Assembly: GCA_003864475.1 (NCBI GenBank) | Contig: BGZO01000005.1 | Span: 1-52,763 of the forward strand | Reading direction: 5' to 3' | DNA: 52,763 bases | Origin: Candidatus Termititenax persephonae | Lineage (GTDB): Bacteria > Margulisbacteria > Termititenacia > Termititenacales > Termititenacaceae | Shown here: positions 51,387 to 52,763 of the stretch, piece after piece | Position numbering within the stretch: position 1 is the first letter of the stretch | How the letters are laid out: every line of letters begins with the position of its first letter | Translations under genes and position numbers: made by a program | The notes under the pieces: model-generated | Seen by the model: only the letters and a program-made list of their open reading frames with translations | What the model was told of the DNA's origin: nothing | Database searches by the model: none

Positions 51387-51415
51387 TGCAAGTATCCGCG
51401 CGCCCCCGCCGATAG
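51387..51415 (+). promoter_or_regulatory. sigma28-like promoter
   Basis: TGCAAG-N15-GCCGATAG; the -10 box is a 7/8 match to the FliA consensus GCCGATAA. Confidence 0.6.
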
Positions 51416-51523
51416 TTGAGTCGGACAAGGTATTGACACTCGTGGTAAGATAACAAGATAAAATATTTTGGACAACCCGCCGCGGAGACACGCAAGACGC
51501 ACGGCATGACAAGGAGACATCCC

Positions 51524-51649
51524 ATGGTTAGTGGCCAGACACTCGGACATTCAGATAATCGCGCGGCGGACGCGGGGTTTCCGCGCCGTTCCGGCGTTGT
51601 GTTAAGTAATACTTACCCCCCCCCCCCCCCCCCACAATTTTTGGCTTAG
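51524..51649 (+). CDS. Leader peptide containing a C18 tract (41 aa, ...NTYPPPPPPQFLA)
   Basis: SD AAGGAG at 51511, ATG 51524, C tract 51616-51633, TAG 51647-51649. Confidence 0.55.
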   Translation: MVSGQTLGHSDNRAADAGFPRRSGVVLSNTYPPPPPPQFLA

Positions 51650-51695
51650 GTACGCCAAAAACATAACATATCCTTACGGCGCAATGAACAAATGG

Positions 51696-51728
51696 ACCCG
51701 CCCGGGCCTGGCTCGGGCGGGTTTTTTT
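51696..51728 (+). terminator. Intrinsic terminator upstream of the tail-fibre-like gene
   Basis: ACCCGCCCGGGC-CTG-GCTCGGGCGGGT 12 bp stem running into a T7 tract. Confidence 0.85.
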
Positions 51729-51769
51729 GCGCTCGGGAGATGAAAAAATAAAACACAGGGGGGCATATC

Positions 51770-52763
51770 ATGGCGAACGCGGGCGACTACAATGACGGCA
51801 CGGACACGGACTTCACGGGGGCGACATACAAAATAAGCACCAACGAGAAAATCTCGGCGGAGGGGATGCGGAACGCCCTGCACACCAAGGAGAAGGTTGC
51901 GAACAAGCAGGTGGACTCCACCGACGCCACGGGGACGCTGACCGCCAGCAGCAGCGACACGTACTACCCGTCGTCCAGGCTGGCGGGGAGAAACCTCGAC
52001 AAGAAAGTGAGCAAGAGCGGGGACACGCTGAGCGGGAGGCTGACCGGGGCGAACCTGAAGGGCGCTTGGATAGACACGTTCACGACGAACACGGCGCTCT
52101 ACGTCCCGCCGAACGACGCCACGGGTTCCGCGGCGCAGGGGGTGCTGTCTTGGCGCACGGCGCAGGGGGACGGGTACGCCATCAACAACCTCAACGGTGA
52201 GAACAGGACGAGGCTGCAGTACGCCACGAGCGCGAACATAACCAGCGGCACGAACACCACGGCAGACGTTCTCACCATCACGGGCGGGGTGGTGTCCTTC
52301 GCGGCATCACCGACCGTGCCGGGCAAGGAGAACCCGGCCTCGGCCAGCAACAAAACGGTCATCGCGACTGAGGCGCAGGTCGCGCTCAAGCAGGACAAGA
52401 TAGCTGCGGCCAGCGGCACGGCGGACGGGCTGATGAGCGCGGCTGACAAGACCAAGCTGAGCGGGATAGCGGAAAACGCCAACAATTACACGCACCCGAC
52501 GGCGACGGAGTACACGTCCGGGCTGTACAAGGTTACGGTGGATGGCCTTGGTCATGTGACGGCGGCCACCGCCGCCACCAAGGCTGACATCACGGCGCTC
52601 GGAATCCCGGGTTCCGACACAACGTACGCGCACCCAACGGCGACGGAGTACACGTCCGGGCTGTACAAGGTTACGGTGGATGGCCTTGGTCATGTGACGG
52701 CGGCCACCGCCGCCACCAAGGCTGACATCACGGCGCTCGGAATCCCGGGTTCCGACACAACGT
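51770..52763 (+). CDS. Phage tail-fibre-like protein, partial (runs off right edge)
   Basis: Open from ATG 51770 (MANAGDYNDG...). KVSKSGDTLSGRLT, DGLMSAADKTKLSGIAENANNYTHP and KVTVDGLGHVTA motifs typical of tail fibres; GC-rich. Confidence 0.78.
   Translation, partial: MANAGDYNDGTDTDFTGATYKISTNEKISAEGMRNALHTKEKVANKQVDSTDATGTLTASSSDTYYPSSRLAGRNLDKKVSKSGDTLSGRLTGANLKGAWIDTFTTNTALYVPPNDATGSAAQGVLSWRTAQGDGYAINNLNGENRTRLQYATSANITSGTNTTADVLTITGGVVSFAASPTVPGKENPASASNKTVIATEAQVALKQDKIAAASGTADGLMSAADKTKLSGIAENANNYTHPTATEYTSGLYKVTVDGLGHVTAATAATKADITALGIPGSDTTYAHPTATEYTSGLYKVTVDGLGHVTAATAATKADITALGIPGSDTT
52491..52763 (+). repeat. 138 bp (46 aa) tandem repeat, at least 2 copies
   Basis: HPTATEYTSGLYKVTVDGLGHVTAATAATKADITALGIPGSDTTYA; DNA units start at 52491 and 52629. 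Confidence 0.95.

Follow-up and report, generated by a model that had tools for sequence, protein, structure and literature searches.

A candidate phase-variable attenuator: a poly-C leader reading frame before a phage-fibre-like gene of Candidatus Termititenax persephonae

Surface genes of Neisseria, Haemophilus and Campylobacter are switched stochastically and heritably by a slippage-prone tract located early in the open reading frame (ORF), from which ribosomes can proceed in three frames. In Streptococcus gallolyticus, GCAGA repeats lie within a 38-codon leader ORF of pil1, followed by a stem-loop terminator (folding free energy, dG, –18.7), and pil3 is organized likewise (Danne et al., 2014, PLoS Pathog, PMC3894217). 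According to that paper, pil1 leaders that stop at least 28 nucleotides (nt) before the hairpin result in low pilus expression, whereas leaders with a stop within or after the hairpin result in high expression by ribosome-mediated antitermination, and mutants without the ATG, with additional stops or without the terminator all fit this model. Further papers describe the mgtCBR leader ORFs as a precedent for the control of transcription by attenuation through short leader ORFs (PMC3641672), heptamer repeats in the leader of Haemophilus influenzae hmw1A that act together with RNase III (PMC12721329) and a leader G-repeat of Helicobacter pylori tlpB that acts with the small RNA (sRNA) RepG (PMC8295292). 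Here, we analyze a leader ORF with a poly-C tract, a predicted terminator and a phage-fibre-like gene at the end of a 52,763-nt stretch of DNA from Candidatus Termititenax persephonae (contig BGZO01000005.1, assembly GCA_003864475.1). This stretch, referred to as the window, is the whole of contig C5 in a genome of 1.83 Mb in 201 contigs that is 89.9% complete by a computed estimate. An earlier note on the same DNA had proposed attenuation at this site and knew of no description of the architecture, but the same logic was demonstrated experimentally for pil1 and pil3 (PMC3894217).

It is quite likely that the leader acts as a frame-dependent switch of some kind, and on balance we think that it is probably a phase-variable leader-peptide attenuator of the pil1 type. 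From the architecture and its conservation, which are observed directly, we infer slippage, a promoter, read-through that depends on the ribosome and the ON/OFF assignment of the frames. Transcription from a promoter located upstream of 51500 would produce an RNA in which the first reading frame is the leader ORF (Shine-Dalgarno sequence, SD, at 51511 and ATG at 51524) containing the poly-C tract. Replication slippage by plus or minus one C would change the frame in which ribosomes exit the tract. Two of these frames would lead the ribosome to a stop within or just after a small hairpin behind the tract (hairpin-1), at TAG 51647 or TAA 51664; the terminator stem would then fold, transcription would end around position 51728 and the fibre-like gene would be OFF. 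In the third frame (C17, C20 and so forth), the ribosome would trail the polymerase across the terminator as far as TGA 51741, thereby blocking the hairpin and turning the gene ON. Ribosomes would also be brought within 26 nt of the gene start, and translational coupling may add to the effect, likely as a helper. EF-P-dependent pausing on the poly-proline stretch, as suggested in the earlier note, may tune the switch, and an EF-P gene occurs in the genome.

The three frames that leave the tract end at +16 (TAG 51647), +33 (TAA 51664) and +110 (TGA 51741), and the gene ATG is located at +136. By frame arithmetic, a tract of 18 C residues (C18) leads to TAG 51647–51649, C19 to TAA 51664–51666 and C17 or C20 to TGA 51741–51743, with the leader reading NFWLRYAKNITYPYGAMNKWTRPGLARAGFFALGR up to this last stop; the outcomes that the earlier note had given for C17, C18, C19 and C20 were thereby confirmed. 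The window copy as assembled, with C18, is predicted to be OFF. TAG 51647 and TAA 51664 precede the terminator stem by 46 and 29 nt, respectively. None of the three frames reaches the structural gene; a change in tract length cannot alter the frame in which the gene itself is read, and the tract is not contained in the ORF of the regulated protein as in in-frame homopolymer phase variation. The terminator stem has a dG of –26 kcal/mol, and the 102-nt stretch around it folds at –44.2 kcal/mol (z = –5.17), with none of 200 shuffled sequences being as stable. The promoter scan called nothing on the plus strand within the 41 nt that separate the T-run from the gene ATG (51729–51769), in agreement with the supposition that the gene has no separate promoter behind the terminator. 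The leader SD, the ATG at 51524, the C18 tract, the hairpin with its T tract and the gene ATG at 51770 had been placed exactly to the base in the earlier note. The promoter-like motif that it reported at 51387, in contrast, was not supported, because no plus-strand promoter was called there; the site consists of ATGCAAGT (51386–51393) and, behind it, a C run with interruptions, likely a fossil of a ATGCAAGT[Cn] module that is intact on contig C40. The tract is far above chance, with 22 overlapping C10 matches in the window compared to 0.14 expected, and in the promoter scan no –35/–10 hexamers flanked the tract, which lies 92 nt inside the leader ORF. Besides one tRNA, the window contains no match to the curated RNA families of Rfam 15 at gathering score, and at E-values up to 1 only two sub-threshold matches appeared (Thr_leader with 20.9 bits versus 55, and a small nucleolar RNA).

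C or G runs of at least 9 nt occur 48 times in the genome, with 10 at contig ends, 10 in internal hairpin cassettes, 20 inside long open spans and 8 in other positions. The 373-nt leader has 19 matches in its own genome, 12 of which are copies of the same leader, and since these comprise seven complete copies, two left halves and three right halves (at contig ends), they represent 10–12 loci. Tract lengths among these paralogs range from C11 to C22. The distance from the SD-served ATG to the tract is exactly 92 nt in all nine left-flank copies, and the leader frame before the tract is free of stops in all nine, whereas the other two frames contain stops in 17 of 18 cases; for any single copy, the probability of an open leader frame by chance is 0.17–0.58. 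Variable columns of the leader are spread over the three codon positions as 17/20/17 without third-position bias, and codon differences summed over pairs amount to 83 synonymous versus 330 non-synonymous changes. Judged from these alignments, openness and length of the leader are conserved and the peptide is not. The even spread over codon positions together with the absent amino acid conservation led us to reject a functional leader peptide, and it is the pattern expected if translation matters but the peptide itself does not.

A leader peptide without amino acid conservation would also be found in a relic without switching, i.e. a module for N-terminal fusion of lipoproteins that recombined before fibre genes and left them silent or dependent on basal read-through. 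The module 'GTG/ATG TTA AGT .. TTA-Cn + hairpin' does begin genuine lipoprotein ORFs (C7:23902, C7:29860, L039 and L011), and the frame lengths in the leader family are within the range of chance. However, a relic should decay, whereas the SD-served ATG at 92 nt, the leader frame, the early stops and the long frame are retained in every copy, including three copies in which the sequence after the hairpin is unalignable, and we therefore regard this explanation as clearly unlikely.

On the right side of the tract, all 10 right-flank copies have one frame of 93–141 nt, while the other two end at 14–33 nt. Which frame is long varies among the copies, as C4 and C67 use the second frame and C98 uses the third. 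Exactly one long post-tract frame thus occurs in 10 of 10 copies, but its identity changes and its occurrence is compatible with chance. When frames were anchored on hairpin-1 for 41 unique cassettes from the genome and its relatives, the old long frame was found closed inside hairpin-1 in all seven cassettes where the long frame had moved, which again is not the expected behavior of a relic. A stop just 3' of hairpin-1 is present in 26 of the 41 cassettes (TAA in 13, TAG in 11 and TGA in 2), and 30 have a stop in the loop of hairpin-1; in nine further cassettes the stop comes 9 nt later, and all nine have an altered loop (GTACCT-type) without TAG or TAA. Among 28 unique versions of hairpin-1, one pair varies between G-C, C-G, A-T and G-T, and nine mismatches were counted; the wobble pairs fit the sense strand only, indicating that hairpin-1 is an RNA feature. 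The 8-nt loop was observed in both orientations, as after small loop inversions, with GTAGGTAC contrasting with GTACCTAC/GTACCTGC when L032, L036, L037, L040, L044, L045, L048, L049 and L051 are compared to the remaining cassettes. In the flipped loop, the loop stop is replaced by a TAA in the 3' arm of hairpin-1 (GCTAAAAA). Two other functions considered for this hairpin were set aside: programmed ribosomal frameshifting, because the stem base has five A-U pairs and tracts vary from 8 to 22 nt, and a sigma-54 type promoter in TTGGC..GC, rejected by inspection only, which has a spacing off by one and also occurs inside coding regions.

In 8 of the 10 copies, the long frame stops 12–26 nt 5' of the gene ATG; in the other two, C4 (as ATGA) and C59, its stop and the ATG overlap. 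This proximity would also be expected if the same poly-C frame switch were read out mainly by translational coupling, by unmasking of the G-run SD of the gene or by shielding of the RNA from Rho, and not by the terminator; in the short frames, about 100 nt of RNA would then go untranslated and would either cause polarity or hold the SD in a paired state. Copy C4 lacks a terminator yet retains the long frame, and the same combination is seen in the class-B cassettes of the relatives, which have a C-rich, G-poor spacer without a strong terminator and a long frame that ends 22–34 nt before the ATG in 9 of 10 cases (the exception being L050 with 136 nt). A gene for Rho is present in the genome, and pairing of the poly-C tract with the G6 SD is predicted, with C:G pairs in 5–7 of 7 paralogs. 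This pairing, however, is independent of the frame, and 8 of the 10 family copies carry a strong hairpin with T-run (dG –18 to –26), at which most transcripts should end without antitermination. Coupling or Rho shielding as the main read-out therefore appears rather unlikely to us.

The distribution of terminators also favors attenuation. Among 42 unique cassettes, 16 terminator calls were obtained, three of which were dropped as spurious because they lie inside coding sequence (C7:29860 and L011) or overlap hairpin-1 (C33). The remaining 13 clear terminators represent six unrelated stem sequences, and the stem starts at +59 to +62 from the tract in 11 of the 13 and in five of the six unrelated sequences. 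In all 13 cassettes, the later short stop is located 26–65 nt 5' of the stem and the long frame reaches 14–76 nt past the stem start; in three cassette groups it stops inside the terminator loop. The terminator stem of paralog C79 carries compensatory changes, and paralog C67 has a non-homologous terminator with the stem starting at +50, about 12 nt nearer to the tract, so that terminators were replaced and not lost as would be expected for a relic. The recurrence of unrelated terminators at a similar offset suggests selection for termination at this place, which a read-out by coupling or Rho alone would not require. The features of the window locus are compiled in Table 1.

Table 1. Features of the leader cassette and of the gene behind it (window coordinates).
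Feature	Position	Strand	Remarks
Cassette 5' end	51375–51432	+	contains ATGCAAGT 51386–51393, interrupted C run, TAG 51413–51415; from paralog alignment, ORF 51308..51415
Conserved promoter-like boxes TTGACA, TGgTAAGAT, TAAAAT	51433–51438, 51443–51451, 51459–51464	+	from paralog alignment; not called by consensus scan
Leader Shine-Dalgarno, AAGGAGA	51511–51517	+	6 nt 5' of ATG; present in all 9 left-flank copies
Leader start, ATG	51524–51526	+	read from sequence
Leader ORF as assembled (C18), MVSGQTLGHSDNRAADAGFPRRSGVVLSNTY-P6-QFLA*	51524–51649	+	short frame, predicted OFF; ORF listing 51506..51649
Poly-C tract, C18	51616–51633	+	presumed slippage site; starts 92 nt into leader ORF
Hairpin-1, 8 bp, TTTTTGGC / 8-nt loop / GCCAAAAA	51638–51661	+	predicted fold; TAG 51647 in loop, TAA 51664–51666 just after
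Predicted intrinsic terminator with GC-rich stem of 14 bp, 3-nt loop and T7	stem 51695–51723, T7 51722–51728	+	from fold; scan listed inner part
Long-frame stop, TGA	51741–51743	+	13 nt past T-run, 26 nt 5' of gene ATG; frame arithmetic
Gene Shine-Dalgarno, G6	51758–51763	+	could pair with poly-C run in RNA
Fibre-like gene, ATG 51770, 5' part (331 codons)	51770–52762	+	runs off contig end (52763)

The phases in which the tracts were assembled are not random, another observation that a relic would not explain. Counted from the start served by the SD, 4 of 32 cassettes were assembled with a tract that places the leader in the long frame, compared to one third expected (binomial P = 0.007), and among leader-type cassettes the count is 3 of 28 (P = 0.006). 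The choice of the start codon is uncertain in some cases, and the cassettes do not descend independently of each other. In the window family, one of seven copies (C98) was assembled in the long frame.

Several observations weigh against attenuation as proposed here. The phase bias is weaker for tracts of at least 11 nt, with the long frame in 2 of 15 (P = 0.08). Dinucleotide shuffling of the window copy yielded a frame of at least the observed length in 65.5% of the sequences, and for each of 20 cassettes the corresponding proportion was 28–79%, or 23–64% when hairpin-1 was kept fixed; a combined shuffle test across the cassettes was not significant. Since a long frame is common in shuffled sequences, the open frame alone is not significant, and we dropped the argument that it is open because it was selected. 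Neither are the 10 of 10 copies with a long frame ten independent observations, because the paralogs share ancestry. Copy C4 is devoid of a terminator and C98 has only a weak one, and in related cassette classes no clear terminator is found and the long frame may end 87–160 nt before the gene. The boxes at 51433–51464 represent no more than a putative promoter, and in the window copy an insertion of 5 nt, which most paralogs lack, makes their spacing non-canonical. The genome contains genes with MutS and MutL domains, so that hypermutability of the tract cannot be argued from missing mismatch repair, and loss of mismatch repair was rejected as a cause of tract instability. Variation of the tract in the population and transcript ends at the terminator are both predictions from the sequence, the former with indirect evidence in the range of C11–C22 among the paralogs and in the 10 of 48 tracts situated at contig ends. 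Attenuation as suggested in the earlier note was thus supported in part, by the conserved leader, stops and terminators, but not by the open frame, which on its own would arise by chance about half the time.

The predicted pairing between the tract and the G6 SD may also point to a graded action of the poly-C RNA that does not depend on the frame, with the tract serving for Rho loading, as partner of the G-run SD or as folding spacer and with the ORF being incidental. Rho prefers C-rich RNA, and a Rho gene is available. In addition, the pre-tract half of the leader ORF contains a conserved GC-rich hairpin (window 51566–51607) that is enclosed by a second stem and shows compensatory changes in the divergent copy C98; in the pre-tract region, both sides were changed in 8 of 58 pairs. 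Nevertheless, tracts of 11 to 22 nt would all pair with a G run of 6 nt, and a graded mechanism leaves the SD-served ATG, the fixed distance of 92 nt, the TAA, TAG and TGA stops at fixed positions and the phase bias unexplained, which makes it very unlikely in our view.

An artefactual origin of the tract during sequencing or assembly, for example from poly-G/C read ends, is hardly conceivable. Although 10 of the 48 tracts are located at contig ends, the window tract is internal with unique sequence on either side, and tract plus hairpin recur in 23 stretches of independent public records and in five other genomes of the family. Among the genomes compared, matches to the full leader were confined to the own genome, whereas the part comprising tract and hairpin was found in four of five genomes of the same genus and in one of two genomes of the sister genus; 33 more distant genomes contained a single weak match, which is probably due to chance. 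A pattern scan in which each prokaryote species was represented by one genome yielded 24 stretches, 15 from Candidatus Termititenax aidoneus, eight from metagenome-assembled genomes (MAGs) of termite-gut Margulisiibacteriota and one from a 'Clostridiales' MAG (L054), which was retained in the tables although chance probably explains it. When metagenomes were scanned for the same locus, a pattern specific to the family gave no stretch and a second pattern, based on the hairpin, gave one (L055), which was considered a chance match and not used. The related poly-C cassettes thus appear to be restricted to termite-gut Margulisiibacteriota (Candidatus Termititenax).

The genes behind the leader copies differ. 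The majority code for small proteins in which ANK..S.STD.QYP..KAV repeats occur, one codes for a Cys/Gly-rich protein of 639 residues and two belong to the phage-fibre-repeat type found in the window. For the window gene, the match to the Pfam family Phage_head_fibr (E = 0.0021, 18 bits) remained below the cut-off of 24.6, a match to phrog_38190, which is of unknown function, reached E = 2.9e-15, tblastn returned partial matches to phage ORFs including one annotated as head fiber protein, and Atlas leads at 0.91–0.92 pointed to fibre families. This evidence for a phage-fibre-like repeat protein is weak but consistent. The leader-gene units of contigs C4 and C18 have housekeeping genes as neighbors (radical SAM, phosphoglycerate mutase and RecJ) and are not located in a prophage. 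The units C18:623-1804 (L056) and C4 (L057:8102-9358) contain small fibre-like genes, and the next gene differs between them, coding for a protein with an FGE-sulfatase domain (E = 1.8e-31) or a protein with an ALK_LTK glycine-rich domain (E = 1.3e-14); these proteins may belong to one surface structure with the fibre-like proteins, as its distal or binding parts.

Sister cassettes with shorter leaders encode MNNLVSINSY-Pn, MKKFLNLR..SY-Pn and MADKDKIVTIY-Pn. In the last class (L048, L051, L053, L040 and C28:19816), a TTTACA-17-TATAAT promoter is followed by the ATG only 7 nt later, so that the mRNA may be leaderless, and short repeated GC-rich hairpin units are located downstream, before lipoprotein genes. 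In four cases, C7:23902, C7:29860 (L060), L039 and L011, lipoprotein genes genuinely begin with the module of tract and hairpin, with a signal peptide including a ..GCG lipobox in the long frame, and all but one of them were assembled out of frame; these tracts represent ordinary in-frame phase variation. As a tentative extension, which we consider possible but doubtful, poly-C and hairpin-1 may together form a portable discriminator of the three frames, i.e. a lineage-specific plug-in contingency cassette with two uses, which Termititenax-like bacteria would have copied before dozens of surface-protein genes. It would serve as in-frame N-terminal fusion in the lipoproteins and as leader-peptide attenuator or coupler before fibre-like genes. 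Hairpin-1 would be an RNA element encoding both OFF stops and might in addition pause the polymerase, allowing a ribosome slowed by poly-proline to catch up before the terminator. Named relatives of the symbiont have been reported to live attached to other cells, and if the cassette were indeed portable, the whole surface repertoire of an uncultured ectosymbiont would be combinatorially switchable via one module.

Poly-C runs were also observed in other arrangements. Contig C40 (L062) carries tracts at 6639, 9108, 10946 and 12617, and with the end of C91 these make four to five tandem ATGCAAGT[C11-12] units. In a unit with C12, the short ORF MQV-P4-SIYRHKHGFIKSGGD ends with a TAA 2 nt before the ATG of the next gene, over its SD, which is a coupling-type layout without terminator. 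At C8:41655-41668, poly-C is located in the 16-nt spacer of a promoter (TTGACTA-C14-TTATAAT), with a hairpin-1-like element upstream and not downstream. On the minus strand of the window, two further runs at 38029–38048 (C20) and 38155–38165 (C11 followed by A17) lie a few codons after an ATG (ATGTTAATAAAAAAAAA-C20 and ATG..TTAACAATTA-C11), in a 370-nt gap upstream of an ORF of 240 residues with unknown function (37897–37175) and a GH9 cellulase gene (37161–34618). No hairpin-1 follows these two runs and every frame ends within 48 nt. Elsewhere in the window, a PIN-domain gene (48856–49287) adjoins tsaD, and a protein of 1546 residues with Ig-like domains and a C-terminal type IX secretion signal is encoded at 15520–20160.

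If attenuation by the leader is correct, it would explain stochastic variation of fibre-like and lipoprotein surface molecules in a termite-gut symbiont with a 1.8-Mb genome, and the pil1-type mechanism would not be a streptococcal curiosity but would have arisen independently in a distant, uncultured phylum. For annotation, intergenic poly-C runs in these genomes should be read as parts of short leader ORFs and not taken for sequencing errors or promoter elements. In the literature searched, a mechanism of the pil1 type was found only for S. gallolyticus, and neither a homopolymer version nor any account of the Termititenax tracts was found, with the genome paper of the genus lying outside the coverage. 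The general understanding of attenuation or phase variation would stay unchanged.

The sister cassettes C7:23902 and L039 before lipoprotein genes resemble classical in-frame homopolymer variation, from which the window locus differs in that all its frames end before the structural gene. In common with attenuation in pyrBI, trp and mgtCBR, the leader of the latter reportedly using proline codons, a ribosome on the leader ORF would decide about the folding of a downstream terminator; in contrast to the reversible sensing of a metabolite or of translation speed in these systems, the input would be a heritable DNA length. As in hmw1A and tlpB, the variable repeat would be transcribed within the leader and act after transcription initiation. 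Both of these, however, operate through RNA structure, processing or sRNA pairing and in a graded manner, and they have neither a leader ORF nor frame logic. The closest similarity is to pil1, with which the element agrees in each sequence-level feature: both loci have a simple repeat within a short leader ORF with its own ribosome binding site and start, and both have a premature stem-loop terminator, predicted in the case of the window, between the leader and genes for surface structures. Short pil1 stops lie about 28–39 nt before the hairpin, and those of the window lie 29 and 46 nt before the stem, with the long stop after it. The repeat in Termititenax, however, is a homopolymer of C11–C22 coding for poly-proline instead of 13–22 GCAGA units, and only one of its three frames is long, whereas in pil1 the variants with one repeat more or less are both long. 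Further differences from pil1 are the conserved hairpin with both early stops behind the tract, the presence of 10–12 copies per genome plus sister cassettes and regulated genes that are phage-fibre-like and do not code for sortase pili. Pil1 was established by experiment, and its counterpart in an uncultured organism of another phylum is known from sequence alone. The Termititenax element is thus not a new kind of mechanism but probably a variant of a known one, the novelty residing in the homopolymer, the stop-bearing hairpin, the multi-copy cassette and the phylum.

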